Source: Kiritimatiellia bacterium (GTDB lineage: Bacteria; Verrucomicrobiota; Kiritimatiellia; RFP12; DVOR01). From it: 64,000 nt of DNA. This document shows positions 5,703 to 38,551 of the stretch, in pieces. Each line of letters opens with the position of its first letter. Within the stretch, counting starts at the first letter, position 1. Position numbers and translations under genes: made by a program. The stretch lies in assembly GCA_036651955.1 (NCBI GenBank), contig JAVVWU010000002.1, forward strand, positions 6,459 through 70,458. Reading direction: 5' to 3'. The notes under the pieces were generated by a model. The model was not told the origin of the DNA. It worked only from the letters and a program-made list of their open reading frames with translations, and did not search any database.

Positions 5703-6089
5703 ATGCCACCTGTCAATCGTCTTGACCGTATCAATGCACTGCTTCTGCGCGAAATCGCTGAGGATCTCTATCGTGTGCTCGGAAACGAACCGGAAATTGA
5801 TATTGCCGGACTTACGGTGACCCGCGTGGATTGCGCCCCTAATCTGCGAAATGCAGATGTATGGGTCTCAATTATGGATGCCGAAAAGCATCCCACGTGG
5901 CTTCGTCATCTCTCGCACGTTTCAAAAGAACTGCAAACGTTAATCAATCGTAATCTTGACTTACGCTATACCCCTCATCTTCGCTTTCGGCTGGATGTGG
6001 GGATTGCCAAAGGCGATCGCGTGTTGGATCTCTTAAATCGCTTGGACTATGACGCTTCCCAAAAGGATGCGGATAACGCCGAAGTTTAA
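5703..6089 (+). CDS. rbfA: Ribosome-binding factor A
   Basis: RbfA-sized, conserved position after infB, AAGGAG RBS. Confidence 0.88.
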   Translation: MPPVNRLDRINALLLREIAEDLYRVLGNEPEIDIAGLTVTRVDCAPNLRNADVWVSIMDAEKHPTWLRHLSHVSKELQTLINRNLDLRYTPHLRFRLDVGIAKGDRVLDLLNRLDYDASQKDADNAEV

Positions 6090-6152
6090 GCTATCGCTCT
6101 ACCTCTGCGCGTGAGGCGCAGCCTTGATGCGTGATGAAGGGTATCCGCTCCT

Positions 6153-6887
6153 ATGATCGAAGTTTCACCTGATCCCGATGGGATTTTGCCCGTGGATAAA
6201 CCGGTCGGCATGGTGTCTCATGTCGTGGTTGCGACGTTACGCAGAAAATTTGGCTTTCTAAAAGTAGGACATGGCGGTACATTGGATCCCGATGCTTCTG
6301 GACTACTGTTGATTCTGCTTGGCAAGGGAACGAAGATTTCCGACCGCGTCATGGGTGGCGATAAAAAGTATATCGGCACCATTCGTTTCGGTGCGGCGAC
6401 AACGACACAAGATCGTCTCGGAGAAATTACGGAATCTCATTCGACTGAAGGGCTGACGGAGGCGGCGGTAACCGAAGCGATGAAAGCGTTTACCGGTGAT
6501 GTGTTTCAAACGCCTCCGATGTATTCGGCTGTTAAAATAGATGGTCAACCGCTTTATAAAATGGCGGTTCGTGGGGAAGAGTGTGAACGTGAACAGCGCT
6601 TTATTCATGTCTATTCTTTTCGTGTAACGGCGTTTCGCCCTTCGGCAGAACGTGCGGAGGCAGATTTTGAAGTGCGTAGTACCAAAGGTACATATGTACG
6701 AACGTTGGCGCACGATTTAGGGCAGGCATTAGGCGTAAGTGCGCATTTGTGTGCGTTGAGAAGAGTTCAATCGGGGATTGTCAATATTGAACGCGCTACG
6801 CCTTTTGCGGAACTTCTTGAAATGTCGCGCGCCGACCTTGTGGCGCGGACGATTCCTTGTGCTCAGTATCTTTCTGGAAAGTTGTGA
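6153..6887 (+). CDS. truB: tRNA pseudouridine-55 synthase TruB
   Basis: LPVDKP.G..SH, GHGGTLDP motifs. Confidence 0.9.
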   Translation: MIEVSPDPDGILPVDKPVGMVSHVVVATLRRKFGFLKVGHGGTLDPDASGLLLILLGKGTKISDRVMGGDKKYIGTIRFGAATTTQDRLGEITESHSTEGLTEAAVTEAMKAFTGDVFQTPPMYSAVKIDGQPLYKMAVRGEECEREQRFIHVYSFRVTAFRPSAERAEADFEVRSTKGTYVRTLAHDLGQALGVSAHLCALRRVQSGIVNIERATPFAELLEMSRADLVARTIPCAQYLSGKL

Positions 6888-7813
6888 AGGCTCGTTTTGT
6901 CCATTGCATTGAAGAAATTCCCTCCGATGCTGTACTTGCCATCGGGACGTTTGACGGAGTGCATACGGGACATCGCCTCATTCTCAATGCCGCGCTTGAT
7001 TTTGCTCGCCGAACAGGACGTGATGCGTGGGTGCTGACCTTTCATCAACATCCACTTTCTATTCTTGCACCGGAGCGTGCGCCACGTTCGATTTGTTCGC
7101 AGGAAGAGACGCTTGAGCAGTTGTTAGCGATGGGCTTCGTCAATCTTGCAACGGTTGATTTTACGCTTGAGCTTGCGGCAATTTCGCCTGAACAGTTCGC
7201 CGATTGTTTCCAACATGCCGTTCTTTTTTGCGGAGAGGATTGGCGGTTTGGTAAATGTGCGCAAGGGTCACCCGAATTGTTACGGGCGCATGGTGTGGAT
7301 GTGCGCGTTCAACCGTATGCGGAATACGCCGGTGTACGCGTGAGTAGTTCACGCATTCGTGATGCAATTACCGCAGGAATGTTTTCAGATGTTGCGGCAA
7401 TGCTTAGGCGTCCATGGAGATATCAAGGAACCGTGGTTCATGGGCGTGGCCTTGCGCGAAAGATGTTTGGCGTGCCAACAGCAAATGTTCTTTTTGACAC
7501 GACACGCGTTGCTCCTGCGCGAGGTGTCTATCGGGCGAAGGTTTCGGTGGAGCGGATTGGAACGTTGGACGCGTTAGTGAATTTTGGTATTGCGCCGAGT
7601 ATTAAAGGAGAGGCTTCGCCACTTTTAGAGGCGCATCTTTTAGCGTATGAGGGTGATCTTTATCAGAAGCAACTCTCTTTTTCGTTCGAGCATGATCTTC
7701 TTCGTCCCGAGCGAACGTTTAGTTCCGTGGAGATGCTTAAAGCGCAGATTTTGTCCGATTTAGCAAACGTGCAGGGCGGTTACAATGAGCACTTTCTTGA
7801 GGAGATCAAATGA
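6857..7813 (+). CDS. ribF: Bifunctional riboflavin kinase / FMN adenylyltransferase. A GTG start at 6884 overlapping the truB stop is more likely than the TTG at 6857.
   Basis: GTFDGVHTGH motif. C-terminal riboflavin kinase domain. Confidence 0.85.
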   Translation: MCSVSFWKVVKARFVHCIEEIPSDAVLAIGTFDGVHTGHRLILNAALDFARRTGRDAWVLTFHQHPLSILAPERAPRSICSQEETLEQLLAMGFVNLATVDFTLELAAISPEQFADCFQHAVLFCGEDWRFGKCAQGSPELLRAHGVDVRVQPYAEYAGVRVSSSRIRDAITAGMFSDVAAMLRRPWRYQGTVVHGRGLARKMFGVPTANVLFDTTRVAPARGVYRAKVSVERIGTLDALVNFGIAPSIKGEASPLLEAHLLAYEGDLYQKQLSFSFEHDLLRPERTFSSVEMLKAQILSDLANVQGGYNEHFLEEIK

Positions 7814-8616
7814 AAACAATTCCGACCGATTTTAATTCACCCATTGAGAAGTTGCGTTGGGTGTTGAAAGCGTTGCGTGCTCCCGATGGATGTCCGTGGG
7901 ATCGCGAACAAACACTTGCCTCTATTCAGCCTTGTTTGCAAGAGGAATGCTATGAGTTGCTTTCGGCAATGGTGGGAGAAGATCTTGAGAATCATCGGGA
8001 AGAATTAGGCGATGTGCTGTTACAAGTACTCTTCCAAAGCGATATCCGCGAAGACGCGGGGCAGTTTTGTTTTGATGACGTTGTCAAAACGTTGACGGAG
8101 AAGCTGATTCGTCGTCACCCTCACGTGTTTGGCGATGGCAAGGCTGCCGATACGGATGCGGTGCTTCGGAATTGGGAACGGATTAAGCAGACGGAACATA
8201 CCACGCCGAAGACTTCAGCGTTGGAGGGTGTACCGGCGGCGCTCCCCGCATTATTGAAAGCGCAACGCGTGCAACATAAGGCGGCGAAGGTGGGATTTGA
8301 CTGGAAAGATGCCGAAGGGCCTTTGGCGAAACTGGATGAAGAAATCGCAGAGTTGCGCACGGCAATCAAAGACGGAGATGCCGAGGCGATTGCGGATGAG
8401 TTTGGTGATGTCCTCTTTTCGTTTGTCAATGTAGCGCGTCACCTTCAAATTGATGCTGAAAGTACGTTGAGAGTGGCTACGGAAAAGTTTTCAAAACGCT
8501 TCCGCGCAGTTGAAGCAAAGGTGAAAAGTTCGGGACGCATGATGACGGCTTTATCTTTACCCGAATTGGATCGCGTGTGGGATGAAGTCAAGCAGGAACA
8601 GAATACTTTGCGTTGA
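7810..8616 (+). CDS. mazG: Nucleoside triphosphate pyrophosphohydrolase MazG
   Basis: Tandem MazG EEXXE..D motifs. ATGA overlap with ribF. Confidence 0.85.
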   Translation: MKTIPTDFNSPIEKLRWVLKALRAPDGCPWDREQTLASIQPCLQEECYELLSAMVGEDLENHREELGDVLLQVLFQSDIREDAGQFCFDDVVKTLTEKLIRRHPHVFGDGKAADTDAVLRNWERIKQTEHTTPKTSALEGVPAALPALLKAQRVQHKAAKVGFDWKDAEGPLAKLDEEIAELRTAIKDGDAEAIADEFGDVLFSFVNVARHLQIDAESTLRVATEKFSKRFRAVEAKVKSSGRMMTALSLPELDRVWDEVKQEQNTLR

Positions 8617-8641
8617 ACGTGGCGAAGAGAGGCGAATCCAT

Positions 8642-9538
8642 ATGGAGCAAGGCACAATTAAGAAACAGAATGAATCGGTAACGGTGCCCTTGTGTACGTC
8701 CTTTGTCGGATTGGATAGTGATGGTTGTGTCGTTGATACGATGGCTGCGAAACAACATGGATTTCTTCAACCGATGTTGGTGAAAAGCTTCGGACTCGAA
8801 GCGATGGCGGATGTTTATTGTGCGTGCGCAGATTTCGTTAATCTCTATTCGGTCACGCGTGGCATTACGCGGTTTAAGTCGATGCTCTTGAACTTTGAAT
8901 GTTTCAATCGTCATCCTGCTGTCATTGCGGCGGATTTTCCTCGGCTTCCGACGGAAGCTTTGCGCGCATTTACGGAGAGTGGACTTCCGATGGGTGATGC
9001 GGCACTTGTGCAATGGCTTGAGACGCACCGTTCGTCATCACTTGAGAAGCTGTTGGAATGGAGCCGTGCGGTCAACCGTGCCATTTTAGACTCGGGTGTA
9101 ACGTTCCCTGCTTATGAAGGCGCACGAGAAGCATTAAAACGGATGTGGAAACGCAGTGATACGGGCGTTGTCTCGCAATCGCCCGAACGTGTGTTGGAGC
9201 AAGATTGGGGATCGCAGCAATTATTACCTTACGTTGGGCAGATTGCGGGGCAGGAGTTAGGCGATAAGGTTCACCAATTAACCGTATTGACCGAGGGAAA
9301 GTATTTGCGTGAACGCGTATTGATGATTGGTGATGCGCCCGGAGATTTGGCAGCGGCGAAGGCGTTTGGTTGTCGTTTCTATCCGATTCTTCCCGGACGT
9401 GAAGAGGCGTCGTGGGCGCGATTCAATGAAACCATTTATGATGCTTTTTATGAAGAACGTTATACGTATGAACAGGAGGCAATTTGCGTTGCCGAGTTTG
9501 AGCGCGTTCTTCCCTCTGTTCCACCATGGGAACAGTGA
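8642..9538 (+). CDS. HAD-superfamily hydrolase
   Basis: Motif I VGLDSDGCVVDT and motif IV MIGDAPGD. Start taken at the ATG with RBS after the mazG stop. Confidence 0.6.
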   Translation: MEQGTIKKQNESVTVPLCTSFVGLDSDGCVVDTMAAKQHGFLQPMLVKSFGLEAMADVYCACADFVNLYSVTRGITRFKSMLLNFECFNRHPAVIAADFPRLPTEALRAFTESGLPMGDAALVQWLETHRSSSLEKLLEWSRAVNRAILDSGVTFPAYEGAREALKRMWKRSDTGVVSQSPERVLEQDWGSQQLLPYVGQIAGQELGDKVHQLTVLTEGKYLRERVLMIGDAPGDLAAAKAFGCRFYPILPGREEASWARFNETIYDAFYEERYTYEQEAICVAEFERVLPSVPPWEQ

Positions 9539-9602
9539 AATGAGCAGCGTGCAGAAAATAGAAGTGTGCGAACTTCCGATGCTATGAATGAGAGGTGTGG
9601 CG

Positions 9603-10658
9603 ATGTCTTTATTGGCTCAAAAACCGGCGTATAATTTTTGCGCAGGACCTTCTATGATTGCTCCTTCAATCTTGGAGGCGGTACGGGCGGATTTAACCGA
9701 TTGGGATGGACTTGGACGAACGGTGTTGGAACTATCACACCGCACGCCGGACTATGCCGAACTCCATGCACATGTGATTGCCAACCTTCATCAGCTCTTA
9801 GGTGTAGGAGATGAGGTGACGATTTTATTGCTTCAAGGCGGAGCCTCGGGGCAGTTCGCAATGTTGCCGTATAACTTTTTACGAGAAGGTGCGGCGGCAG
9901 ATTATCTCGTGCGTGGTTATTGGGGTGAACGTGCCTCACAGCAGGCCGCTCGCGTAGGATGTGTGCGGACGCTTTCGCAACCTGAGGGATGGAATGCCGA
10001 TGCCGTGTATGCTCACGTGACAACGAATGAAACGATTGCCGGAACGTGTCTCCCCGAAGCCGCCTTTGTTCCTCCCATGCCTCTTTGCGCAGATATGTCG
10101 TCGGATATTTTATCGAGACCGCGCGACTACTCGCGTTATGCACTCTTCTATGCGGGCGCACAAAAGAATTTAGGTGTTGCCGGATTAGCAGTCGTTGTCG
10201 CGCAAAAGGAATTTCTTTCCAATGCTCGTCGCAATCTTCCTGCAGCATTTTGTTATCTTGAACATGCGAAAGCGGCAGGACTGTATCACACGCCGAATGT
10301 GTTTGCGGTGGATGTCCTTTCACACGTCACCGATGCGCTTCTGACCGAAGGGCTTCCGAACGTTTTTGCTCGCAATGCGCGAAAGGCAAAGAAGCTGTAT
10401 GATGAACTTGATCGTTCAGACTTTTGGCGTCCACTCGCACCCGTTGCGGAGCGTTCGATAACCAATGTTACCTTCCGTTTGCCGACGGTTGAACTCGAAG
10501 ATCAATTTTTGCAAGGCGCAGAAGCCGAAAGCCTTTTTGCCTTGCGTGGACATCGTGCGCTTGGGGGCATTCGTGCGTCCCTCTATAATGCTTTCCCTGA
10601 AGAAGGGGTAGACGCATTGATTACATTCATGAGACAATTCGAAAAGAGTAATGGATAA
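9603..10658 (+). CDS. serC: Phosphoserine aminotransferase
   Basis: Class-V aminotransferase (SerC) architecture. GAGAGGTG RBS. Confidence 0.88.
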   Translation: MSLLAQKPAYNFCAGPSMIAPSILEAVRADLTDWDGLGRTVLELSHRTPDYAELHAHVIANLHQLLGVGDEVTILLLQGGASGQFAMLPYNFLREGAAADYLVRGYWGERASQQAARVGCVRTLSQPEGWNADAVYAHVTTNETIAGTCLPEAAFVPPMPLCADMSSDILSRPRDYSRYALFYAGAQKNLGVAGLAVVVAQKEFLSNARRNLPAAFCYLEHAKAAGLYHTPNVFAVDVLSHVTDALLTEGLPNVFARNARKAKKLYDELDRSDFWRPLAPVAERSITNVTFRLPTVELEDQFLQGAEAESLFALRGHRALGGIRASLYNAFPEEGVDALITFMRQFEKSNG

Positions 10659-10672
10659 TCAAGGAGTATTTT

Positions 10673-10921
10673 ATGGCAATTGAAACTGAAGTTTACAGTG
10701 ATGGTATTTATCAAATTCATTTGATTGAGAATATGATTCGTTTGGACTTTATGCGCCTTCAGCCAAGTCCTGAAAGTAAAACTCCTGTACCTAAACCATT
10801 TGAACGCGTCATTCTCAATCCACAAGGTTTCTTACGTACCTATGAGGCCATGGGACAAATCGTTGCAAAGCTTGAAGAAATGGGATTGGTTCATCGGAAC
10901 AATCCGCCGCCACAAGCCTAA
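10673..10921 (+). CDS. Small hypothetical protein (82 aa)
   Basis: Strong AAGGAG RBS 8 nt upstream. No recognisable domain. Confidence 0.45.
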   Translation: MAIETEVYSDGIYQIHLIENMIRLDFMRLQPSPESKTPVPKPFERVILNPQGFLRTYEAMGQIVAKLEEMGLVHRNNPPPQA

Positions 10922-11094
10922 GTCCTAATCGCTTCTCTTTATTTTACAACGTTATACGTTAATAGGCTCTGCCACATAGGTAGCGCACTTATTTCGATTG
11001 GTACTTATTTTCTGCCGTGAGGGAGACCGGTCGGTCGTCCTCTTTTTGTGCGCGTAGCTCAAATACGAGATGCAGCGTTGCTCCCAATGAGTCT

Positions 11095-11345
11095 GGACTT
11101 ACTCTGCATTAGTCCACATCGGCAGTCGGAAATGAAACACTACTTATGCAAAATGGCACAGTTGTGGCACGGTTGCTTTGAAGCCGCGCCTCACTGAGGT
11201 GAAAGTCTTACCTCAGTGAGGTAGACCTCGCACCTCATTGACCCTGACCTCGTACCTCAATGAGGTACGCAATCGAATCTTTTGGAATATCTCTTGAAAT
11301 CTGTGTGGCGTATGACTAAAGCTCTGAAAATGAATGCATAAGGTT
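11095..11345. repeat. Conserved intergenic module, copy A. It contains a TGGCAC direct repeat, two tandem hairpins, a conserved 3' box and TGCATAAGT motifs.
   Basis: About 200 bp is alignable to 23556-23755 at roughly three-quarters identity by eye. Confidence 0.65.
11154..11169 (+). promoter_or_regulatory. Sigma-54-like -24/-12 element TGGCACagttgTGGCA (GG-N10-GC spacing)
   Basis: Exact -24 TGGCAC. The -12 reads TGGCA rather than TTGCA. Copy B has 1 nt less spacing. Confidence 0.3.
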
Positions 11346-11490
11346 GCTCGCTCGGACAGCAGTTACCGGAATGTGCGGAGTGGCTCATTCTTTCTTATGA
11401 GGACTATTATCTGCGTCTAATTTCTTGCATAAGTGTTGTTGTAAGATCTCAATCCTATTTCATTTGACCTTTTTATAAAAGTTCCTTTAC

Positions 11491-11517
11491 CTCATAATAG
11501 CCTCTTCCTATTATGAG
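11491..11517. promoter_or_regulatory. Perfect 10-bp inverted repeat CTCATAATAG-N7-CTATTATGAG upstream of the DegT locus
   Basis: Seen directly. No T-tract on either strand, so operator-like rather than a terminator. Confidence 0.4.
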
Positions 11518-11659
11518 CGATGGTCTTACTCTCGCCGCGTAATCGATTGACAAAGGCTCTAAATCTGAAGCTGGATTGCTTTGATGGCTCGGATTTCGTA
11601 TCATTAGCGCTACAACTTAATTTTATAGCGAAGAGCGCCCCTGTTGAGGGTACCTTATT

Positions 11660-12805
11660 TTGAAAGTAGGGATACGAGTGAAAAAATTTGAAACGCCGAT
11701 ACTTGTTACGCGTCCATGGCTTCCTCCATTGGAGGAGTTCTCACAGGGACTAGCTGAAATCTGGAAGAATCAATGGCTGACAAATAATGGGCCGGTATTG
11801 GAACGTTTCCAAGCGGCACTCGCGCAACAGTTGGGATTGAGTACGAGGAATTTGTCGTTATTTGCAAATGGGACTTTAGCACTTGAGTTGATGTTTCAAA
11901 CGTTAGGGCTTGCCGGAGCAGAAGTTGTTACGACACCTTTTACATTTGTTGCAACCAGTCATGCGTTACGCCGGATCGGTGCAATTCCTGTATTTGCAGA
12001 TGTCGATCCGGAAACGCTATGCCTTTCACCTGAAGCGGCTGAACGAATGATTACGTCACGTACCAAGGCAATTGTTCCTGTACACGTCTACGGACATCCT
12101 TGCGATATCGATGGTTTTGCGCGATTGGGAGAAAAGTACGGGCTGAAAATCGTTTATGATGCGGCTCACTCATTTGGTGTTACGCTTGATGGCGCTTCAA
12201 TTGCGACTTATGGCGATGCGTCTATGTTTAGTTTCCATTCCACAAAACTCTTTCATAGTATTGAAGGCGGGTTGCTAACTTTTCGAGATGCAACAATTCA
12301 AGGTGGATTAGAGTGTTTGCGCAATTTCGCGATTACTTCTGAAACGACGTGTGATGCGATTGGCACGAATGCCAAAATGAACGAATTTGCTGCACTTATG
12401 GGCTGTTGTGGGCTTCGTCAATTGCCCGATCTGATTGCTCATCGCAAGGCGATTTAGGAGATTTACGCTCAAGCATTTGAAGGAACGCCAGTGAAATTGT
12501 TGGCGCGTCCAACGCATATGGCGCGGCATACGGTTGGACACAACTATGCTTACTGCCCTGTACTTCTTCCTGATTTTGAAATGCGAGAGCGCGTTTATGC
12601 GCGATTGAAAGCGTTTAATGTCTTTACACGTCGCTACTTTTACCCTCTGCTTTCGGCATTTGCTCCCTATCAAGATACGCGTGGAAATACGCCCATTGCC
12701 AAAAAAGCAGCTGATTGTGTCTTAACGCTTCCAACCTATCATGGGCTTGCCCTTGAAGATGTTCGTGTCATTGCTCAAAACGTTGTAGAGCTTGTTCAAT
12801 GTTGA
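11660..12805 (+). pseudogene. DegT/DnrJ/EryC1 (ArnB/PglE-like) sugar aminotransferase interrupted by an in-frame TAG at 12455-12457
   Basis: The two ORFs 11660-12457 and 12491-12805 are in the same frame. Conceptual read-through gives ...HRKAI*EIYAQAF..HNYAYCPVLL, a contiguous DegT sequence. Confidence 0.7.
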
Positions 12806-13620
12806 AACGTCTTATTATTGTTGGTGCTAGCGGTATGGGGCGTGAAGTCGCGTCTTATGCAAAAGAGGCTTTGCCGACACTTTCAATCGCAGGATTCTTG
12901 GATGATCGATCTGATTTATTGAACTCCTTTGATGGATTACCGCCCATCCTTGGATCTGTCGAAGCGTGTCATCCGCAAAAGAACGATTACTATCTTGTGG
13001 CTGTAGGTGATGCAGAAGCGCGTGCGCATTATGTTGATTGTCTTATGGTTCGTGGGGCGCATTTTGCAACGCTTATTCATCCGACTGCGTTTGTCGCGTC
13101 ATCAGCAACGCTGGGAGAAGGATGTATTATTTGCCCACAAAGTGCGGTTTCTACAAACGTTCTAATGGGGCGGCATACAATCCTCAATTTAGGTGCATCG
13201 GTAAGTCATGATTGTGAAGTGGCAGATTTTTGTACGCTCTCTCCGGGCGCTCGACTTACAGGCGCCTGTCATTTAGGACAAGGCTGTTTTCTTGGGGTGA
13301 ACGCGTCGCTGATTCCGAAGATTCATTTGTCCGCGTACACGAGTGTGGGTGCAGGGGCTGTTGTAATCCACGCCGTTCCAGAATGTCATACAACGCTTGC
13401 AGGCGTTCCGGCGCACGAGATTTCTCGTGGGGGGGGGTGGAATTCGTGGCAAAATCTCCATCAAAAAGAATGTAATTGCATAAAGTTTACGTCTTCTGTC
13501 AGATTACAAAGAGATTCTAAACAACACATTTATTTTGATACAAAGCGTACTTTCTCTAAGAGGGAAAGTACGCCGTCATTTTTACGATTATACAGTTCAT
13601 CAATTATGAAGGTAAGTTAA
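12799..13620 (+). CDS. NeuD/PglD-family sugar N-acetyltransferase (hexapeptide repeat). The last ~60 aa are likely an artefact of the poly-G tract at 13431-13439; the -1 frame ends at 13481.
   Basis: MLKRLIIVGASGMGRE N-terminus with left-handed beta-helix repeats. The ORF runs through an intrinsic terminator. Confidence 0.7.
   Translation: MLKRLIIVGASGMGREVASYAKEALPTLSIAGFLDDRSDLLNSFDGLPPILGSVEACHPQKNDYYLVAVGDAEARAHYVDCLMVRGAHFATLIHPTAFVASSATLGEGCIICPQSAVSTNVLMGRHTILNLGASVSHDCEVADFCTLSPGARLTGACHLGQGCFLGVNASLIPKIHLSAYTSVGAGAVVIHAVPECHTTLAGVPAHEISRGGGWNSWQNLHQKECNCIKFTSSVRLQRDSKQHIYFDTKRTFSKRESTPSFLRLYSSSIMKVS
13545..13584 (+). terminator. Rho-independent terminator (10-bp stem gcgtactttc/gaaagtacgc, then a T-run)
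   Basis: Seen directly. It lies inside the annotated 3' extension of ORF 12799-13620. Confidence 0.6.
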
Positions 13621-13621: not shown

Positions 13622-14254
13622 ATGCGGAAATCGGTTTATATTATCGGTGCGCGTGGATTTGGTCGTGAGTGTGCGAATAATCTTCAAATGGATCAGCGGT
13701 TCAGAGAAAATTATGAACTGAAAGGATTCTTAGATGACAAAGCAGATGCACTCAATGGATTTGATAATTATCCTCCGATAGTTTCCTCGGTAGAGGACTT
13801 TATCCCACGGGAAAACGATGTCTTTGTCTGCGGACTTGGCAAAAATGAATATCGTAAGAAGTACATTGAAATAATGTTAAGTAAAAAGGCATATTTCCAA
13901 ACGTTCATTCATCCGACTGCAATTATTCATCCAACAGCAGTTCTTGGAGTTGGTGTTCTTGTTGGGGCAATGACAACTGTAAGTGCAGATGTAAAGGTCG
14001 GAGATTTTACACTTATCCACCCATACAACTGTTTAGGTCATGATACTGTTTTAGAACGGTTTTGCGTGAGTGAATGCTTTAGCTTCTTTGGCGGATTCTC
14101 ATTTGTGGGTGAAGGTGCAACGATTCATACGCGTGCAACAATTCTTCCACATATAAAGGTAGGTCGTGGAGCCGTCGTTGGGGCAGGAAGTGTTGTTCTT
14201 CGCTCTGTATCTGAAGGTACAACCGTTTTTGGTAATCCAGCGATTAGATTTTAA
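13622..14254 (+). CDS. NeuD/PglD-family sugar N-acetyltransferase, paralog B, in a low-GC block
   Basis: MRKSVYIIGARGFGRE N-terminus with hexapeptide repeats. Visibly AT-richer than its neighbours. Confidence 0.8.
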   Translation: MRKSVYIIGARGFGRECANNLQMDQRFRENYELKGFLDDKADALNGFDNYPPIVSSVEDFIPRENDVFVCGLGKNEYRKKYIEIMLSKKAYFQTFIHPTAIIHPTAVLGVGVLVGAMTTVSADVKVGDFTLIHPYNCLGHDTVLERFCVSECFSFFGGFSFVGEGATIHTRATILPHIKVGRGAVVGAGSVVLRSVSEGTTVFGNPAIRF

Positions 14255-14273: not shown

Positions 14274-15257
14274 TCACGATTGTGCAGGCATTCTGTTGTG
14301 CCAGATTTTGGGGTGGGCTGGGAGGTTGGTAGGGGCGTAGCCGGGGAGTTGTTCGTGCATGGTTGGAACGGATGGGTGAAGCAGATCTGTCGTTGCAATG
14401 GTACGTGCCGCGTGTGGCAAAAGCTTCCATGGTCCGGTGAGGGAATCGTGTAGAACATATGAGATTTTTTGGCTCATCGGCTTACTTTCACTGGGTGCAT
14501 GATCTACGAATAAAAGCCCATGTTCGCGTGCGCGATCGCACATCCATGCAAGTGTAGTTTCGGGAAGTCCACGCCCACTATAGCCGCCACCAATGTCTGT
14601 ATGGGAACCGGCAAACCAAACTTCGGTTACGCGTGAGTCTGAAATAAAACGGGTAGGAGAGAATGCGTTGCGGCATTCGTCGATGGCGAGTGCGTGGTAG
14701 GCGGCATTGACGCAAGCCGGTAAAGTTTGAATGCCAAAATCTTCGGTGAAGGTCGTTTGTACCGTGTCCCATACGCCGAGCATCTCAATGGGGACGTTCT
14801 TGTACCCATGTTGAGTAGAGAGGCTTTTTGCCAGCGCTACATCGTGACTTCTAAAGGCTTTTATCGCAAGTTGTTCACTCTCTTTCATCGGCGGAATACC
14901 ACAGAAGTCAATGAGACTTGCTAACCATCGTGCCGCAAAAGCACCTCGGCTGAATCCGAAAATATAGAGACGCGGTGTTAATCCTTTATCAAAAGCATGC
15001 GCGCAATCGCGTTGTGCTGTACGATAGGCTTCAATGACACGGCTTTCTAAGTTTACACCGGCAACACTTCCGGGAATGAATTCATCGGGACGTGTGCCAA
15101 TGCCGGCTTCATAATGTGTGATTTGAGCTGTTACGTCTAGCACGGATACCCACCGTTGCAATCGGGCAACATTTCCCCACTGTTCTTTTATTTTCGCTTG
15201 ATCAATATCCATGTCGGTGCCATCAATGGTAAGAACGATATTAAAGAATTTAGGCAT
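14274..15257 (-). CDS. DUF2235 alpha/beta hydrolase (T6SS Tle1-like phospholipase domain)
   Basis: N-terminal IDGTDMD, a GFSRGA nucleophile elbow and WFAGSHTDIGGGY. AAGGAG RBS. Confidence 0.75.
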   Translation of the reverse strand: MPKFFNIVLTIDGTDMDIDQAKIKEQWGNVARLQRWVSVLDVTAQITHYEAGIGTRPDEFIPGSVAGVNLESRVIEAYRTAQRDCAHAFDKGLTPRLYIFGFSRGAFAARWLASLIDFCGIPPMKESEQLAIKAFRSHDVALAKSLSTQHGYKNVPIEMLGVWDTVQTTFTEDFGIQTLPACVNAAYHALAIDECRNAFSPTRFISDSRVTEVWFAGSHTDIGGGYSGRGLPETTLAWMCDRAREHGLLFVDHAPSESKPMSQKISYVLHDSLTGPWKLLPHAARTIATTDLLHPSVPTMHEQLPGYAPTNLPAHPKIWHNRMPAQS

Positions 15258-15281
15258 GGTCTCTTCTCCTTATTTTATACT

Positions 15282-15629
15282 TTAATCTTCGGGCATTTCG
15301 GGGCCTGTTGTGGAGTCTGGGATTGCCCACCATTCCACTTCTACGGGAGAATAAAGCCCCAGGCTGAGTACGGTAAGTAAGGCATCAAGGTAAGTTGTCC
15401 GATAATGAACTTTGGTAAGTCCGCCGACCGAACTCTTTGAGGCTTTCCAATCGCTGTTCCATGGATAAGTCCGCCATAGCGTCCCTTGATAATATTCGAC
15501 TTGATGTTCGCCACCGTCGGGGCCAAAGGCTTCAACTGGGACAGACATTTTACACCCATCTAAGAAAACCATTGCAGTGATTAAAGAACCACTGAATATT
15601 ATCCTAACAACTAACGAACGAATGCGCAT
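15282..15629 (-). CDS. Bor/Iss-family outer-membrane lipoprotein
   Basis: Signal peptide with an LDGC lipobox. LSLGLYSPVEVEWW resembles lambda Bor GFITLGIYTPLEARVYC. TAAGGAGG RBS. Confidence 0.6.
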   Translation of the reverse strand: MRIRSLVVRIIFSGSLITAMVFLDGCKMSVPVEAFGPDGGEHQVEYYQGTLWRTYPWNSDWKASKSSVGGLTKVHYRTTYLDALLTVLSLGLYSPVEVEWWAIPDSTTGPEMPED

Positions 15630-20479: not shown

Positions 20480-21211
20480 ATGTGGAGACTAATCAATCTG
20501 AGTTTAATTGGAATTATTGGATTCTGTGGATGTGTTAGAACAACTGCAGTTGAGTCTGATAAGAGTTTGAGAACGAGCGCACAACAAGCGTTTTCAATGG
20601 GGGAGTATAATCGCGCAAAAGCATTGATTATGCAAGCGGATCGCTATCAGGTTCCATGGACGGAACTTTCACGCCGCACACTTGATTTGCGTATTGCACA
20701 AGCAGAAAATGTACAAAATGGAGAACTTCAGTTTCTTCAAGATGCTTGGCTCAAACAATATGATCGTTGGACAGCAGAGGAACGTGCGGACGCTCAACTC
20801 ACGATGATTGAAACGTTACGTCCAGAATATGCGCTTGATCAATTGCGTGACATTGATACTTATGGGTGGTCAGCCGAATTACGCGCACGTTATAATTTAC
20901 TCTTTGCACGTCTCCTTGCCGGTCGTCCCGAACTTTATGATACAACCATTGCAAAGTGGACGATGGGCATTAAGGCACTTTATAAGACCGGTAAAAAAGA
21001 CGTTGCGGCGCGTGAAGCTGAACGATGTGCAACACTGATGAAAAATGCAAATGCTGCATTGATTGCCGCGAAGATTCATAATGAGTTGCATCATATGAAG
21101 TCGAAAGAAGATGCGATCCTTCTCGGGCTTTCATTCTCATCAGAGAGCGATATCTTGCATGAGGTCAACCTTATCCGTTCTGCATCTCTTGGAACTAAAA
21201 GCCAACTCTGA
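20480..21211 (+). CDS. Hypothetical secreted protein or lipoprotein
   Basis: N-terminal hydrophobic segment with cysteines. No known domain. Confidence 0.45.
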   Translation: MWRLINLSLIGIIGFCGCVRTTAVESDKSLRTSAQQAFSMGEYNRAKALIMQADRYQVPWTELSRRTLDLRIAQAENVQNGELQFLQDAWLKQYDRWTAEERADAQLTMIETLRPEYALDQLRDIDTYGWSAELRARYNLLFARLLAGRPELYDTTIAKWTMGIKALYKTGKKDVAAREAERCATLMKNANAALIAAKIHNELHHMKSKEDAILLGLSFSSESDILHEVNLIRSASLGTKSQL

Positions 21212-21273
21212 TGAAGAAAATTCATGAGAGATGCAGTAAAAGTGCCACTTTATTATAGAAAAGAGAATTAACT

Positions 21274-22551
21274 ATGGCGGATGGAGATACACGACGTTGG
21301 TCGCTTCGCAATCCCAGCGCAGAGATTAGTAACAACAATATTCCTACGGCGATGCTTGTACAGTGGGCGTCGCAAGGAATTGTTAAGCCGGGCTATACGC
21401 TCTCCACCGATGGAATCTCATGGGTTCCTGCCGAAACACTTCCCGAGCTTAATATGACGTGGTATATCCTTGCTCCGGAACGTCCGCCCTACGGACCTAT
21501 CACTCAAGCCGCTGCAGAAAAATTTATCGCGGAAGCTCTTTTCCCTCGGAACTCTGTTCTCTCACAAAATCCGGGCGATCAGCCCGTTTCGATTGAGCTT
21601 CCTTTACATCTTGTTATCCCGGAAGAATCTCATCAACAAGAAGTGGAAGAAACGCGCAAACGTCTTGTATTACTTGAGAAAGAACTTCGGATTAAAGATC
21701 GTCGCATTAACGAATTGCGGCAAGAAGCTGAAATGCACCAATCTGAATTGAACGTTGATAATATCCCCGACGCAAAGACGCTCGCCGCTGAACTTGAACA
21801 AACGCGATTAGAATATGCCCACCTTAAGGCTTCTGCTCAAGAAGCCGAAGAAGCTTCTGCCCAGCATGAGCGTGAATTGCGTCAGCGGATCCATACGCTT
21901 GATACTGCCCTCGAAAAAGCTCAAAGCACACTTCCGCCGGAAGCACCGCCAGATGAAACGCTTTTTGCAATTCTTTCCAAAGAAGCGGAACTCCTTCGTC
22001 AAGGACAAGAAGAAGAACAACGATTGCTAGACCAAATCCGTGAACTTGCACGGATGCGTCTGGTTCAGCTTTCAGAGCGTCTCCGTGACATTTGCAAACT
22101 TACCGGAGACACGCCTCTACAGATGCGCGAAAATATTCGGCGAGAAGGTTATATTCATCCGATTACCGTTGTCCAACGTTCCAACCCTACCGGTAATGCC
22201 GAATTAGAAAAAAGCCTTTCCGCCGCCCTCGCGCGTGAAAGTGCTTTGCAAAAACAGCTTATTTCGCTTGAAGCACGTGAAACGGAATTGCGTACTAAAG
22301 TCGGTCAAGCCGAACGTCAAACGCTTGATTCCCTCACCCTTGATGAAAAGTTAAGAGAAACTGCGAAAGCTTTGGAACGCGAACGGCATTCTCGCGAAGA
22401 AGAACATCGTGAAAATGCGCATATTCAAGAGCAATTGCTTCGTCGTATTGAGGAACTTGAACGTAATGCAATTCCGGCGACCGCGCCAATTCTTGAGTCT
22501 CCGTCAGTCGAACGCCCCGCGTCGAACTTCGGATGGCTTCGGAAGAAATGA
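21274..22551 (+). CDS. DUF4339 (GYF-like) repeat protein with a long coiled-coil region
   Basis: W...GP...W repeats at the N-terminus. Heptad-rich E/R/L C-terminal half. Confidence 0.5.
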   Translation: MADGDTRRWSLRNPSAEISNNNIPTAMLVQWASQGIVKPGYTLSTDGISWVPAETLPELNMTWYILAPERPPYGPITQAAAEKFIAEALFPRNSVLSQNPGDQPVSIELPLHLVIPEESHQQEVEETRKRLVLLEKELRIKDRRINELRQEAEMHQSELNVDNIPDAKTLAAELEQTRLEYAHLKASAQEAEEASAQHERELRQRIHTLDTALEKAQSTLPPEAPPDETLFAILSKEAELLRQGQEEEQRLLDQIRELARMRLVQLSERLRDICKLTGDTPLQMRENIRREGYIHPITVVQRSNPTGNAELEKSLSAALARESALQKQLISLEARETELRTKVGQAERQTLDSLTLDEKLRETAKALERERHSREEEHRENAHIQEQLLRRIEELERNAIPATAPILESPSVERPASNFGWLRKK

Positions 22552-23471
22552 TTCCTCCTCTTTTTCTTGCACCTATGGCAGACTTTACAACGCCCGCAAT
22601 GCGGACGTTGTGTGAAGCGTTTGGTGCACAACGCACCTATACAGAAATGGTCAATGCCGAAGGCATCTGTCGTCAATCTGAAAAGACGCTTTTCTTATTA
22701 GAGACCTTTCCCGAAGAACGTCATGTGTGGGCACATCTTTATGGTGCCGAGCCCGAACGGCTTGCGGAAGCGGCACGTAGAGTTGAAGCGCTTGGACGCT
22801 TTGAAGGTATTGACATCAATGCTGGATGTCCTGTGCCACGAATTACTTCACAAGGTGCAGGATCGGCACTTCTTCACGATCTTCCACGCCTTGGACGAAT
22901 TTTGGAGGCGGTCGTCAACGCAGTTCAACTCCCCGTTACCGTAAAAACAAGATTAGGTCCCAATCCACAGTTGAAAACGGGGGCTGAAACGGTACACATT
23001 GCAGAATCAGCAGGCGTTGCAGCAATGACGTTTCATGCACGCTATACATCACAAGGACATATGGGGCCACTTGCGTTAGAAGAATTACGCAACCTTGTCG
23101 CAAGCACGCAACTCCCACTTTATGGCAACGGTTCCGTTGTTGATGTTACCAGTGCACAGACGATGGCAGAGACCAACGTTAAAGCCATTCTCATCGCACG
23201 TGCGGCGCTTGAAAGTCCTACGATCTTTTCTTTTACGCAAGGAGATCCTTGCACTTTAGCCAAACGGCATCTTGAACTTGAACTTCGATATCGCGAACGT
23301 GCTTGCCGTTTCTCCCATATTACAGCCGAAGAGGCAACGGTACTGACGTTTCGTAAACATCTTTTCCGTTATTTCAAGGGACTCCCCGGGTCGAATACGC
23401 TCCGCGGTCATCTGATGGACTTGCATACGCTTCAAGACCTCTGGACTGCGATTGACTTTTTCGCTCAATAA
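22533..23471 (+). CDS. tRNA-dihydrouridine synthase
   Basis: LAPMADFTTPAMR Dus family, TIM-barrel FMN motifs. Confidence 0.85.
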   Translation: MASEEMIPPLFLAPMADFTTPAMRTLCEAFGAQRTYTEMVNAEGICRQSEKTLFLLETFPEERHVWAHLYGAEPERLAEAARRVEALGRFEGIDINAGCPVPRITSQGAGSALLHDLPRLGRILEAVVNAVQLPVTVKTRLGPNPQLKTGAETVHIAESAGVAAMTFHARYTSQGHMGPLALEELRNLVASTQLPLYGNGSVVDVTSAQTMAETNVKAILIARAALESPTIFSFTQGDPCTLAKRHLELELRYRERACRFSHITAEEATVLTFRKHLFRYFKGLPGSNTLRGHLMDLHTLQDLWTAIDFFAQ

Positions 23472-23499
23472 AATTCGTCTTATTTTGACTCCCAAAGTC

Positions 23500-23760
23500 C
23501 TGCTTATGCACGGACTCTATTCTGCATAAGTCCACATAAGAGGTCATAACAAAAGCAGCACTTATGCAAAGTGGCACAGTCTGGCACGGTAATGAAGATG
23601 CGGCGGCCTCAGTGAGGTAAGCCCTCTACCTCACTGAGGTACGAGGTCAGGGTCAGTGAGGTACGAGCTCTACCTCATTGAGGTGCGCGACGAAACGTTT
23701 TGGAATATCTCTTGGAATCTGCGAGGAATAGTACTAAAGCTTGGAAAATGAATGGAATGG
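23500..23760. repeat. Conserved intergenic module, copy B
   Basis: Alignable to copy A. Hairpins at 23607-23639 and 23653-23681. Confidence 0.65.
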
Positions 23761-23966
23761 GCGGGTGTGAAGTCTCTTTGTGTGCCAGAAAGTTATGAAC
23801 CTATTTCAACACGCTCAGAAGGAGTACTTTTTGCAGTCACAATTCTGCATAAGTGTAGTTTCGTTTCCGACGTCTATTTAGTTTATAGGCAGCGGCTGTG
23901 TCTCTTCCGGAGGTTTTGAAGCCACGCGCCATAAGGGGAGCCCGTCAGAGGAAGGGAGGCTTTTGG

Positions 23967-23982
23967 TATACTACAAAGAATG
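23967..23982 (+). promoter_or_regulatory. TATACT -10 box 7 nt upstream of the dnaE ATG (candidate leaderless promoter)
   Basis: tttTGgTATACTacaaagaATG. No room for an RBS. Confidence 0.4.
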
Positions 23983-26900
23983 AGTGAGAAAATAAAAGAG
24001 GTCGCGGTGGATGTGCCACAAGTGCCATTTGTGCATTTGCACGTTCATACCGGCTATTCGCTTTTAGATGGTGCGTGTCAAGTGCCAGCATTGGTGGCAC
24101 GTGCTAAGGCTTTGGGGATGCGTGCGTGTGCGATTACCGATCACGGTAATTTGTTTGGTCTAAAAGAATTTTATGATAGTTGCCGGAAGGCGAAGATTAA
24201 ACCGATTTTGGGATGTGAAGCGTATGTGGCACGATTAGGACGAAAGAATCGAGAGCAACGCAGCGGCGATCATCTGATTTTACTCGCAAAGAATCTCACG
24301 GGCTATCACAATTTATTGAAGCTGATTTCGCTCGCTCATACGGAAGGATTTTATGGTCGTCCGCGGATTGACTGGGAACTTTTAGAGCGTTATCACGAGG
24401 GGCTGATTTGTTCGACGGCGTGTCTTGCGGGGATTGTTCCGCGTATGATCGAAGATGGGCGGATTGATGAGGCGGAACGGATCGCGCTTCAATATCGTGC
24501 GCTTTTCGGTGATGATTATTATTTTGAAGTGATGTTGCACCCATCGGTGGTGTCTGTCTATGCAGAGCAGTTGAATGCGCAGGTTCATCGACGCCAAGTT
24601 ATTTTACGTGATGAGCTTTTGAAATTGGGTGCACGGTTGCAGATTAAGGTCATTGCCACGAATGACGTGCATTTTCTTCGGGAAGATGATGGACCAGCGC
24701 ATGATATTCTTCTATGTGTGAGTACAGGGAAGAAGCAGGCGGAGGGAAAACGTCTCCGTTATACGCAGCAGGAGTGGTTCAAAAGCTACGAGGAAATGCA
24801 GAAGCTTTTCCCTGATCATCTTGAAGTTTTGCATAATACGCTCGAAATTGAGAAAAAGGTTGAGGCGTACGAATTAAATTCAGATCCCATTATGCCGGTG
24901 TTTCCTATTCCAGAAGCGTTTGGAACAGAAGCACAATATGCCCAACGTTTCCCCGAGGAAGTGTTGTGTAAGGAGTTTGGCGCGCGATATGAGAAATTTA
25001 AGGGGTATGAGAAGGTTGTCCGCATTAAGTTGGAGTCGGATTATCTTGCTCATCTGACGTGGAAAGGTGCGGCGTTACGTTGGCAGGGAGCGGCTTTGAC
25101 GGAGGAGATTCGCACGCGGATTGAGTTTGAGCTTGAGACGATCAAGACGATGGGTTTCCCCGGTTACTTTTTGATTGTGCAAGATTATATTGCAGCGGCG
25201 CGTGCGCTCGGTGTGATTGTCGGTCCGGGGCGTGGAAGCGCGGCAGGAAGTGCAGTTGCTTATAGTTTGCGTATTACTGATATTGATCCGCTCAAGTATG
25301 ATTTGCTGTTTGAACGTTTTCTTAATCCCGATCGTATTTCGATGCCGGATATTGACGTGGACTTTGATGATGAAGGGCGCGGGCGCGTACTTCAATGGGT
25401 GACTGAAAAATATGGTGCCGATCATGTAGGACATATTGCAACGTTTGGAATCATGGCTCCCAAAAGCGCGATTAAAGATGTTTCGCGTGTCCTTGATTAT
25501 CCGATTGCAGAGGCCAATGTGTTGGCAGGAATGGTGCCAGAAGCTCCGAAGATTACATTTGCTAAAGCGTTTGTGGAGAACCCGCGGCTGGCTGAAATTT
25601 TGGATGGTCCCGATCCGCAGAAGCGACAAATCATGGAATTGGCAATGCGCCTAGAGGGAACGACGCGTAATGCCGGTGTTCATGCGTGTGGCATTATCAT
25701 TAGTCGCGATCCTTTGATGGAGACAATCCCGATTACGCCTACCGATAATGAAGAATTGATGACGACGCAATACGGGGGGCATTTTGTTGAGCCGATTGGA
25801 CTTCTTAAAATGGACTTTTTGGGGCTTAAGACGCTTTCCGTCTTAAAAGCCTGTCTTGAATCGATTAAGGAATCCCACGGTGTCGATGTCGATATGGAGC
25901 AAATCCCTATCGACGATAAAGAAACATTTGAGCTTTTCTCCCGCGGTGAAACGGATGGTCTCTTCCAGTTTGAATCGGATGGGATGAAGGGGCATTTACG
26001 TGTCTTGAAACCGAATAGGTTTGAAGATCTTGTGGCAATGAATGCACTGTACCGTCCCGGTCCGATGCAATATATTCCGTCTTTTGTCAAACGTAAACAT
26101 GGTCAAGAAAAAATCAGCTACGATCATCCTTTGATGGAACATTATCTCAAGGATACCTACGGGATTACGGTGTATCAGGAACAGGTGATGTTGCTGTCAC
26201 GAGCCTTGGGACAGTTTACACGTGGCGAATCGGATTCCCTTCGTAAGGCGATGGGTAAGAAGCAAATTGAAACGATGGAGGAGCTTTACGGAAAATTCGT
26301 AAAGGGCTGTTTATCGAATCCCAAGTTTATGGAAGCCTGTCGCGGTGAAGCAGATGCGAAAGAGCGTATCGAAAAGATTTGGGGCGATTGGAAAAAGTTC
26401 GCCGAATACGCCTTCAATAAATCACACTCGGTTTGCTATGCCTATATTGCTTATCAAACGGGATTTCTCAAAGCGCATTATCCTGCCGATTTTATGTGCG
26501 CGCAGATTTCCTCTGAAATAGGTCATTTCGATAAGATGCCGGCGCTTGTTGCTGCGGCCTCTGAAATGGGGCTTCAAGTATTGCCGCCAGATGTGAACGC
26601 GTCACGTTCGCATTTTTCGCCTGAAGGTAAAACGGCGATTCGATTTGGACTTGGTGCGATTCGCGGTGTGGGCGTGCTTGCTGGCGATGCGATTGTTCTC
26701 GAACGCCAAAAGAATGGTCCTTATAAAGGTTTGATTGATTTCTGTAAACGCCTTTCCGGTCTTGCGGCAAAAGATATCAATGAGGGGAAAAACTTAGTCC
26801 ATAAACGCGTGGTTGATGCGCTTATTCGTAGTGGCGCAATGGCGTGTTTCTCTCATTGTCATCAGGGGCAATTATTAGCCAATATTGATTTTGCCTTTTC

Positions 26901-27732: not shown

Positions 27733-27736
27733 GCTT

Positions 27737-28726: not shown

Positions 28727-28730
28727 ATAG

Positions 28731-30815: not shown

Positions 30816-31423
30816 AAAAACAGGTATTGATTCTTGGTGCGGGCGGTTTGGGGCGTGAAGTCTTTCATTGGGCACACGATTGCGGTTATGAAGTCCTTGG
30901 GCTGATAGACGACAATCAAAATGCGCTTGAAGGCTACAAAGGTTACGCCCATATTCTCGGAGGCGTTGATGATATTCCTCTTATGGCGCCTATTATTTGT
31001 GGCGTTGGTAAAAGTGCGGTGCGTCGAGCCTGTGTAGAACGGTTGCTCGTGCGCGGTGCAGAATTTGTTTCTTGTGTTCATCCGCTAGCGAAAGTTTTGG
31101 ACGGGAGTACGTTTGGGCGTGGAGCAGTGATTGCGCCCTTTGCCTATGTTGGAGCAGATGTGAACGTTGGCGATTTTCTTTTTATGCAGACAGGTGCAGT
31201 TTTAGGGCACGATGTTGCGGCAGGTGATTTTTTGCGAATGGATACCACCGCATTCGTTGGCGGTTTTTCGCAAATTGGAAATGATGTGACGCTTTATACC
31301 GGTGCAAAGGTAATGCCGGGGAAAACAGTGGGTGACCATTGTACGCTTGGGGCAGGATCGGTTCTGCTCAATAATTTATATGCAGGAGCAACGGCATTTG
31401 GTGTTCCTGCTCAAAAGATTTAA
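30812..31423 (+). CDS. NeuD/PglD-family sugar N-acetyltransferase, paralog C
   Basis: MKKQVLILGAGGLGRE with hexapeptide repeats. Confidence 0.8.
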   Translation: MKKQVLILGAGGLGREVFHWAHDCGYEVLGLIDDNQNALEGYKGYAHILGGVDDIPLMAPIICGVGKSAVRRACVERLLVRGAEFVSCVHPLAKVLDGSTFGRGAVIAPFAYVGADVNVGDFLFMQTGAVLGHDVAAGDFLRMDTTAFVGGFSQIGNDVTLYTGAKVMPGKTVGDHCTLGAGSVLLNNLYAGATAFGVPAQKI

Positions 31424-38357: not shown

Positions 38358-38374
38358 TTACTTAAGGTAACGTC

Positions 38375-38459: not shown

Positions 38460-38473
38460 CATGACTCCATGAT

Positions 38474-38548: not shown

Positions 38549-38551
38549 TCT

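Follow-up and report, generated by a model that had tools for sequence, protein, structure and literature searches.

We identified an undescribed non-coding cassette of ~350 bp, carrying four hairpin-forming palindromes, in an uncultured bacterium of the gut Kiritimatiellae. It occurs twice in a 64-kb stretch of contig JAVVWU010000002.1 from a Kiritimatiellia bacterium; this whole stretch is called the window below, and all positions are given in its coordinates. Copy A (11095-11440, 346 nt) and copy B (23512-23860, 349 nt), both placed on the + strand by local alignment and gene context, are a genuine paralogous non-coding module that lies outside every described family. The new evidence is clearest in the DNA itself, in the form of an in-place inversion flanked by palindromes and the breaking of assemblies at the edges of the element. 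The element is most likely a lineage-specific intergenic repeat rather than a conserved RNA gene, and we tentatively favour, with a little less than even confidence, its interpretation as a lineage-restricted modular DNA repeat that resembles BOX elements or transposable elements of the miniature inverted-repeat type (MITEs) and whose palindromes pair as hairpins.

Two paralogous copies of a non-coding intergenic module

An earlier note, made by reading this DNA without database searches, had aligned about 200 bp of the two loci (11138-11336 with 23556-23755) at roughly three-quarters identity. We compared copies A and B pairwise, using the two complete intergenic gaps (10922-11659 and 23472-23979) as input for local alignment. 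The gap-versus-gap score of 209, set against 26.2±3.3 and a maximum of 40 for shuffled sequence, bore out that alignment, as did the identity of the core, which was 73.5% raw and rose to 78.5% once a flipped segment, described below, was corrected. When 350 nt around each copy were aligned with MAFFT, the mean column identity was 78%. The 3' end had been set too early, since homology runs ~100 nt further, to a conserved block AATTCTGCATAAGTGTnGTT.

The view that both copies are non-coding and lie between co-directional genes also held. Copy A has upstream of it an open reading frame (ORF) of 82 amino acids, itself preceded by a gene for a class-V aminotransferase, and downstream of it a DegT-type aminotransferase gene, all on the + strand, while copy B is found between dus and dnaE, both on the + strand. 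The copies have no ORF in common, and no conserved small ORF was found. Of the landmarks described below, neither the T1 block nor the long tail motifs nor palindromes with at most one mismatch occur elsewhere in the window, which therefore holds exactly two complete copies and no relics. The statement that the module belongs to no known family likewise withstood a search of Rfam, which gave no gathering-level match, and a comparison in which the BrickBuilt family was ruled out.

Shared architecture of the two copies

The internal motif order given in the earlier note was present in A and B alike, and the full set of landmarks follows the same order in each: a T1 block TCTGCATAAGTCCACAT, an inverted T2 site ACTTATGCA, two TGGCACrGT repeats, four 22-bp units, a 57-nt tail, ~85 nt of filler and a terminal T3 block TGCATAAGTGT. 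Start-to-start spacings of the landmarks are 37/12/11/26/22/22/22/23/35/11/100 in copy A and 37/12/10/27/22/22/22/23/35/11/102 in copy B. Both copies contain the strings ACTTATGCAAAr, TGGCACAGT and TGGCACGGT, followed by the palindromic units of 22-bp period.

The T1 block reads TCTGCATTAGTCCACAT in copy A (11103-11119, + strand), where the strain represented by contig L056 has a perfect TCTGCATAAGTCCACAT, and TCTGCATAAGTCCACAT in copy B (23521-23537, + strand). T2 is the reverse complement of the T1 core, TGCATAAGT, and lies at 11142-11150 in copy A and at 23560-23568 in copy B, on the - strand in both. In copy A it supplies the left arm of an inverted repeat of 16 nt (14/16 identical) whose partner is at 11425-11440, 273 nt away; in copy B the inverted repeat around the core has a perfect core of 9-10 nt, with its partner at 23846-23854, 277 nt away. 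These partners belong to the T3 block (11420-11440 in copy A, the TTTCTTGCATAAGTGTTGTT region, and 23840-23860 in copy B, both + strand), which is 18/21 identical between the copies and is a direct repeat of T1 as well as an inverted repeat of T2. The 13-mer ATTCTGCATAAGT in T3 of copy B repeats the T1 sequence perfectly and in direct orientation. Exact TGCATAAGT sites number five in the 64 kb, where ~0.5 would be expected by chance (64,000 x 2 / 4^9), and all five fall within A and B at matching positions and orientations. A further inverted T-like site with one mismatch, GCTTATGCA, lies just outside copy B (23502-23510, - strand). As a general motif, TTTTGGAAT showed no enrichment.

Downstream of T2, the two direct TGGCACrGT repeats occupy 11154-11173 in copy A, with starts 11 bp apart, and 23572-23590 in copy B, with starts 10 bp apart, both on the + strand. 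They are followed by the array, at 11188-11269 in copy A (centres 11194, 11216, 11238 and 11260) and at 23606-23687 in copy B (centres 23612, 23634, 23656 and 23678). Each 22-bp unit is built on one 13-bp palindrome, ACCTCAnTGAGGT, which in its perfect or one-mismatch tandem form is confined to the two copies within the window. The hairpin-forming units had been described as two hairpins on a period of about 22 bp; we retain the period, with a spacing of exactly 22 bp, and amend the number to four units per copy, three intact and one, unit 3, half-degenerate.

The conserved tail (11280-11336 in copy A, TTTTGGAATATCTCTTGAAATCTG ... ACTAAAGCTCTGAAAATGAATG; 23698-23754 in copy B; both + strand) is identical at 48/57 positions (84%) and reads TTTTGGAATATCTCTTGrAATCTG ... 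ACTAAAGCTykGAAAATGAATG in both copies. Between the tail and T3 lies a variable stretch of 83 nt in copy A (11337-11419, + strand) and 85 nt in copy B (23755-23839, + strand), with random-level identity in either orientation. Conservation is therefore a mosaic: motif blocks are 84-100% identical, while identity is at random level in the spacers between T1 and T2 and ahead of unit 1 and in the ~85-nt filler. Despite this, the unalignable segments keep their length to within 2 nt between the copies, a combination that points to constraint on motifs and spacing, or exchange of modules.

An inner segment of the array is flipped between the copies

When both strands were folded, the minus strand of the copy A array resembled the plus strand of the copy B array, and apparent divergence between the arrays was re-read as an inversion. 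The inner 31 nt of the array in copy A (11223-11253; spacer, unit 3, spacer) match their counterpart in copy B (23641-23671) at 28/31 positions when inverted and at 8/31 in the forward orientation (binomial P ~4e-12). Over units 2-4 the corresponding values are 52/57 and 32/57, and the two versions of unit 3, ACCTCATTGAccc in copy A and gggTCAGTGAGGT in copy B, are reverse complements. From these comparisons we conclude that the inner array segment was inverted in place, in one lineage, between two flanking palindromic units. Palindromic units are by nature inverted repeats of each other. We found no support for a flip of the remaining variable segments: the spacers between T1 and T2 and ahead of unit 1, like the ~85-nt stretch, match at random level in both orientations.

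The central base of all four palindromes differs between A and B. Even so, the central bases of adjacent units can still pair in each copy (C/G and T/A in copy A; G/C and G/T in copy B; 4/4 pairs). This weakly fits units that pair as hairpins, through either selection or templated repair, the number of pairs being only four.

Some contigs of other assemblies of this species stop at the elements

Five contigs from two NCBI metagenome-assembled genomes (MAGs; GCA_036649275.1 and GCA_036653435.1) and two Logan assemblies (SRR25820366 and SRR25820367) match the window at 99.7-99.9%. Logan contig L056 corresponds to window 5742-11120 and stops 1 nt past the T1 block of copy A, while MAG contig L052 (13382-23503) and L057 (11918-23482) both stop just short of copy B, L052 at the extra T-like site described above. 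Of ten contig ends observed in other assemblies of this species, three lie within 35 nt of the left edge of an element (P ~1.3e-5), and no retrieved contig spans an element. Right-hand contigs restart at 11918/11921, in two independent assemblies, and at 25798, all far from T3. Contigs L057 (NCBI MAG) and L058 (Logan) both begin at 11918-11921 within the DegT gene, which makes this a reproducible break, ~480 nt to the right of copy A.

Copies A and B share at most ~20 exact bases and would be unable, by themselves, to break an assembly with k>=31. Their dissimilarity points to more similar copies elsewhere or to structural heterogeneity within populations, and the breaks at the left edges suggest one or the other. 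The element marks short-read assembly breakpoints in this lineage, and its recognition could aid scaffolding and the interpretation of these MAGs.

Host and distribution

Some 29 uncultured species of gut Kiritimatiellae (Candidatus Spyradenecus and its relatives, a few of which carry the label Lentisphaeraceae) have proteins 88-95% identical to the CorA encoded in the window, and Dus is 100% identical to an NCBI Kiritimatiellia MAG protein, with the next-best match at ~76%. We searched for the array as a pattern of two adjacent units and for the whole element with a profile built from A and B. None of 185,579 species-representative genomes and no viral contig matched the pattern. With the whole-element profile, plasmid and phage collections gave nothing, and viral hits gave nothing beyond the seed word. 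In metagenomes the pattern returned 20 loci with GC contents of 0.38-0.72, whose only common feature was the searched palindrome; the A/B profile matched them over array positions alone. The two closest of these, L048 and L045, were rejected as homologues on account of unrelated flanks and gene contexts. L048 was the sole metagenome locus that resembled the whole unit, and its leader and tail failed to match.

In the related species, the whole-element profile found no match in 511 kb of CorA-anchored loci from 29 species and no trace downstream of dus in the three nearest relatives. This sample amounts to ~17 kb per genome and is not syntenic with the window, so that orthologous gaps were not captured; the exact-pattern scans, for their part, are blind to diverged relatives. 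Within these bounds, the search for homologues proposed in the earlier note came up empty in genome, metagenome, viral, plasmid and phage collections and in ~0.55 Mb from the sampled relatives. Nor was there an orthologous empty site for comparison, as synteny ends at dus and every relative has a different gene downstream of it.

Two side observations arose from these searches. The block that ends at dus, composed of a 243-aa gene, a 425-438-aa gene and dus itself (window 20480-23471), is kept in the nearest relatives L053, L054 and L055; with a different gene after dus in every genome, dus is a recurrent synteny breakpoint. Three metagenome contigs from unrelated, high-GC organisms (L037 860-1050, L039 1410-1600 and L040 250-440, in contig coordinates; GC 0.67-0.69) carry long arrays of 21-22-bp CCTCAsTGAGG units that switch strand midway, which gives two head-to-head mirrored arrays and a giant palindrome.

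The element as a candidate modular repeat

The plan of the element comprises a left module (T1, inverted T2 and the two TGGCACrGT repeats), a four-unit minisatellite, a tail, variable filler and the terminal T3. Unique end modules around a tandem middle, hairpin potential, an intergenic position and a restricted distribution together match the class of BOX/BrickBuilt-type repeats, and modular intergenic repeats typically show DNA-level behaviour of the kind seen in the flip and the assembly breaks. In such a repeat, the palindromic units would pair with one another as DNA hairpins or cruciforms. Pairing between units may have produced the flip and may keep the central bases of neighbouring units complementary, and further copies in the genome, or structural heterogeneity in populations, would probably be present. 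If transcribed into the leader of the downstream operon (DegT-PglD-PglD for copy A, dnaE-GT2-694aa-PglD for copy B), the array would form hairpins of about -40 to -50 kcal/mol, which could change transcript stability or read-through. BOX, ERIC, Correia and BIME repeats have been described as altering one or the other.

Several observations weigh against this interpretation. The copies seen are only two, counted within the 64-kb window. Terminal inverted repeats are absent at the limits of homology (GGACT... versus ...GTnGTT), the inverted pair being formed by internal T2 and terminal T3; no target-site duplication flanks A or B, with limits uncertain by a few nt; and the window encodes no transposase or recombinase. 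The contig breaks may stem from other causes, such as strain heterogeneity or low coverage, and the absence from relatives is weak evidence, given ~17 kb per species and scrambled synteny. Finally, the mosaic of kept motifs and random-level, length-kept spacers is unlike the neutral decay of a selfish repeat and suggests selection on motifs and geometry. This mosaic leaves room for three rival explanations, in which the element is a regulatory cassette bound by protein, a switch that works by recombination or a structured RNA.

If correct, interpretation as a modular repeat would give Kiritimatiellae a hitherto undescribed family of intergenic repeats that are modular and palindromic. These bacteria abound in the gut and rumen, are known almost solely from MAGs and have, as far as we know, no catalogued repeat families.

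Alternative explanations

A cis-regulatory role of the element is possible. In its most explicit form, which we regard as unlikely, the element would be a non-mobile cassette in which the four phased palindromes act as operators for a dimeric regulator on one helix face, 22 bp being about two turns. Further factors would bind to the TGGCACrGT direct repeats and to the three TGCATAAGT sites, and two operons with sugar-modifying genes would be co-regulated. Such a cassette would account for motifs that are 84-100% identical between spacers of random-level identity and kept length, and for palindromes whose central base is free to vary, as in a dimer-binding site. A and B also share an orientation upstream of operons with DegT- or PglD-type genes, and the terminator-like hairpin before copy A (see below) would put that copy in a 5' regulatory region. 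However, simple operator binding predicts neither the in-place flip nor the complementarity of neighbouring central bases, and it leaves the assembly breaks unexplained. We found no candidate regulator encoded nearby, the adjacent 82-aa ORF being without a match in Pfam, NCBIfam or PDB sequences, and no sigma70-type promoter was detected inside either copy. Glycan genes are common throughout the window, so the association of the element with glycan operons is weak.

The inverted T2 and T3 sites could also serve a recombinase encoded elsewhere, which would flip the core and phase-vary the downstream glycan operons in the manner of fimS and the invertons. We think this improbable. The sites bracket the core at matching positions in both copies (9-bp perfect core; 14/16 in copy A; ~275 bp apart), and they are conserved across the unalignable 85-nt stretch. 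The size of the T2-T3 segment matches that of fimS-type switches. Invertons are frequent in gut bacteria, and in one survey Verrucomicrobia (Akkermansia) had the most per genome (10.1101/2023.03.11.532203), a frequency that adds to the case for a switch. An inversion has demonstrably taken place inside the element, assemblies break at the elements as mixed orientations would cause, and the downstream operons carry glycan genes.

The details fit a T2-T3 switch less well. The inversion that was observed covers 31-57 bp and has palindromic units, not T2 and T3, at its ends. Contigs stop at T0 or T1 (23482, 23503 and 11120) rather than at the inner edge of T2, and with restarts at 11918 and 25798, far from T3, a simple T2-T3 inversion fits the break pattern only partly. 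A and B have the same orientation, and the opposite orientation was found in no retrieved contig, none of which spans an element. The window encodes no recombinase, although global invertases can be encoded elsewhere in a genome; the consensus scan found no convincing promoter in the core; and T1, as a third site that repeats T3 in direct orientation, falls outside a simple two-site scheme. In a broader version, to which we give only a small chance, the cassette would belong to a set, spread across the genome, of recombination-active regulatory switches in gut Kiritimatiellae, with the TGCATAAGT sites, the palindromic units or both as sites of recombinase action or hairpin resolution. Flipping of the T2-T3 core or of the inner array would then reversibly alter surface-glycan operons and, unusually, a dnaE-headed operon. 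This would be a phase-variation system of an uncultured PVC (Planctomycetes-Verrucomicrobia-Chlamydiae) lineage, with an architecture of three T sites and a palindromic minisatellite unlike described invertons. Either a switch or an operator cassette would provide a first handle on surface-glycan regulation in the phylum, with one of the operons headed by dnaE.

The earlier note had suggested a family of small structured RNAs or cis-regulatory elements. For the RNA part, the copies would be paralogous small RNAs or 5' leader elements on the + strand, in which a T2:T3 stem closes around two hairpins and a conserved, unpaired tail able to bind a protein or mRNA; we doubt this seriously. The array is strongly structured, with z scores of -5 to -6 relative to shuffles. 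These are equal on both strands, as the array is palindromic by construction, and the minimum-energy folds differ between the copies, with tandem hairpins in array A and a nested hairpin in array B. Folding of the whole element is modest (z ~-2.5), and the ~85-nt variable part is unstructured, folding no better than shuffles (z ~-0.3). RNAalifold predicted the T2:T3 closing stem and hairpin 1 in both copies and slightly favoured the + strand (-54.7 versus -45.6 kcal/mol on the - strand), a result that carries little weight with two sequences only. Where just one side of the stem extension has changed, G-U pairs survive on the + strand only, and central-base complementarity between units is maintained, both in favour of an RNA, but covariation from two sequences has almost no statistical power.

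A 31-nt inversion within a functional RNA core would normally be disruptive, and the lack of a homologue in any collection searched would be unusual for a functional RNA of ~300 nt. Rfam 15 at the gathering score gave no match in A or B, where the earlier note had proposed such a scan, and the window matches were three tRNAs elsewhere. At E<=5, copy A had nothing and copy B only mir-3138, mir-3190 and AsdA, far below their thresholds. A consensus scan found no sigma70-type promoter or intrinsic terminator inside A or B, though the promoter rules of the phylum may differ. With structure beyond shuffles confined to the array, alike on both strands and folded differently in the two copies, no promoter or terminator and no homologue outside the genome, a family of small structured RNAs is unsupported as stated.

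Gene neighbourhood

The window is core chromosome, with nusA-infB-rbfA-truB-ribF, dnaE, pgk, ispG and ispH, and among its 55 proteins we found no transposase, integrase, recombinase or invertase. A terminator-like hairpin, GAGGGAGACCGGTCGGTCGTCCTC followed by UUUUUG, lies ~50 nt upstream of copy A and after the 82-aa ORF (11019-11047, + strand; -18.7 kcal/mol, z = -1.9). It is outside the repeat, and the consensus terminator scan did not call it. The hairpin probably ends the long nusA-infB-...-aminotransferase operon upstream, which suggests that copy A is in the 5' region of the DegT-PglD-PglD operon.

Downstream of copy B, the operon (23980-31423) consists of dnaE, a GT2 glycosyltransferase gene, a gene for a 694-aa protein without a family match and a PglD-like acetyltransferase gene, separated by 4-nt gaps or overlaps. 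The earlier description of the two sites as unrelated loci, a glycan locus and a replication gene, was therefore too strong, since glycan genes (GT2, PglD-like) are found in the operon of copy B as well. The combination dnaE-GT2-694aa-PglD is an odd apparent operon, and the N-terminus of dnaE has no close relatives, with a best identity of 61% and many matches labelled Bacteroidales. The window has three PglD-like hexapeptide acetyltransferase paralogues (12799-13620, 13622-14254 and 30812-31423), two of which share ~75% DNA identity over their first ~50 nt (12798-12849 versus 30811-30862). The DegT gene (11660-12805) is interrupted by an in-frame TAG at 12455-12457, where contig L057 has TAT (Tyr) and an uninterrupted frame; the TAG may reflect a nonsense mutation confined to the strain, a pseudogene or an error in sequencing.

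Elsewhere in the window, a gene for a Tle1-like type VI secretion system phospholipase effector (14274-15629, - strand) sits beside a small Bor-like lipoprotein gene, as an opposite-strand island in a + strand region. ARAGORN detected a tRNA-Glu (anticodon CTC) at 38474-38548, which is the fourth tRNA of a Pro-Leu-Glu-Ser cluster (38281-38641) of which the Rfam gathering scan gave three.

Comparison with known systems

Several known elements were considered and set aside. As a sigma-54 promoter, copy A (TGGCAC-AGTTG-TGGC) has the right spacing and one mismatch, and copy B (TGGCAC-AGTC-TGGC) is 1 nt shorter, so that the direct repeat is conserved and the -24/-12 geometry is not. A sigma70 promoter in the tail (TTGrAA-N17-TAAAGC, unique to A and B) has a poor -10 element without the invariant final T and was not called by the scan. 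A replication origin or iteron array was rejected on GC skew, which is positive throughout the window with no sign change; a tRNA or tmRNA on the ARAGORN result, which is empty for 10900-11700; and a CRISPR array on the units, which are contiguous 22-mers without CRISPR-like spacers.

REP units are imperfect palindromes of 20-40 nt that alternate in orientation, occur in hundreds of copies and are linked to RAYT transposases. The element shares with the REP/BIME repeats of enterobacteria regularly spaced, short extragenic palindromes between co-directional genes, hairpins and a tendency to rearrange. In contrast to those repeats, its palindromes are perfect, 13 bp long and four per copy, set inside long unique conserved flanks, and neither a Y1 nor a RAYT transposase occurs among the 55 proteins of the window. 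With regard to MITEs, we found two copies in 64 kb and no relics, and the assembly breaks at the edges hint at more.

The BrickBuilt MITE of Porphyromonas gingivalis and P. gulae is composed of a leader, a 23-nt minisatellite and a tail (PMC4596501). Its leader-minisatellite-tail plan, its always intergenic position and a minisatellite period of 22-23 nt are paralleled here, and a GC content of 48% together with the 22-bp minisatellite had suggested this family. We rejected it because the unit, the terminal repeats and the host, here gut Kiritimatiellae, differ. The BrickBuilt unit AGACCATAGTATCCTCTCATATG is 23 nt long, non-palindromic and without similarity to the 22-nt unit built on ACCTCAnTGAGGT, and the IS5-type terminal inverted repeats GAGACCTTTGCA and TGCAAAGGTCTC, searched with up to 2 mismatches, were not found in or beside A or B (10 in the window, 5.4 expected). 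The element thus matches neither BrickBuilt nor REP/BIME.

A close structural parallel in plan is offered by the BOX repeats of Streptococcus pneumoniae, which are modular with the order boxA-boxBn-boxC (PMC3049150). Both are intergenic and non-coding, span a few hundred bp, have unique ends around a tandem middle module and are predicted to form stable stem-loops, and BOX elements are often co-transcribed with neighbouring operons (PMC3049150). In BOX, the middle module is 45 nt long without a palindrome array and copies exceed 100 per genome, whereas the element has 22-nt units, two copies seen, an additional internal inverted site (T2), unalignable filler and a flipped inner segment. BOX is further set apart by its host phylum, and its sequence is probably unrelated to that of the element; here both copies have four units, with no variation in unit number seen.

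Invertons such as fimS and those of Bacteroides and Akkermansia resemble the element in having short inverted repeats around ~275-315 bp upstream of operons for surface structures or glycans, repeats common to paralogous copies at several loci, and gut-bacterial hosts. They differ from the element, at most a candidate switch, in that it has a third T site in direct orientation.

For the flip itself, a likeness is found in plastid non-coding DNA, where hairpin loops undergo flip-flop inversions between inverted repeats (PMC6342102). As in those inversions, the sequence between short inverted repeats is in opposite orientation in homologous copies and the stems are unaltered. The plastid loops are 5-50 bp long and are compared between orthologues of different species, whereas here the comparison is between two paralogues of one bacterial genome and the flanking repeats are palindromic minisatellite units. 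The flipped segment offers a clean bacterial case of short-palindrome-mediated inversion within a repeat.

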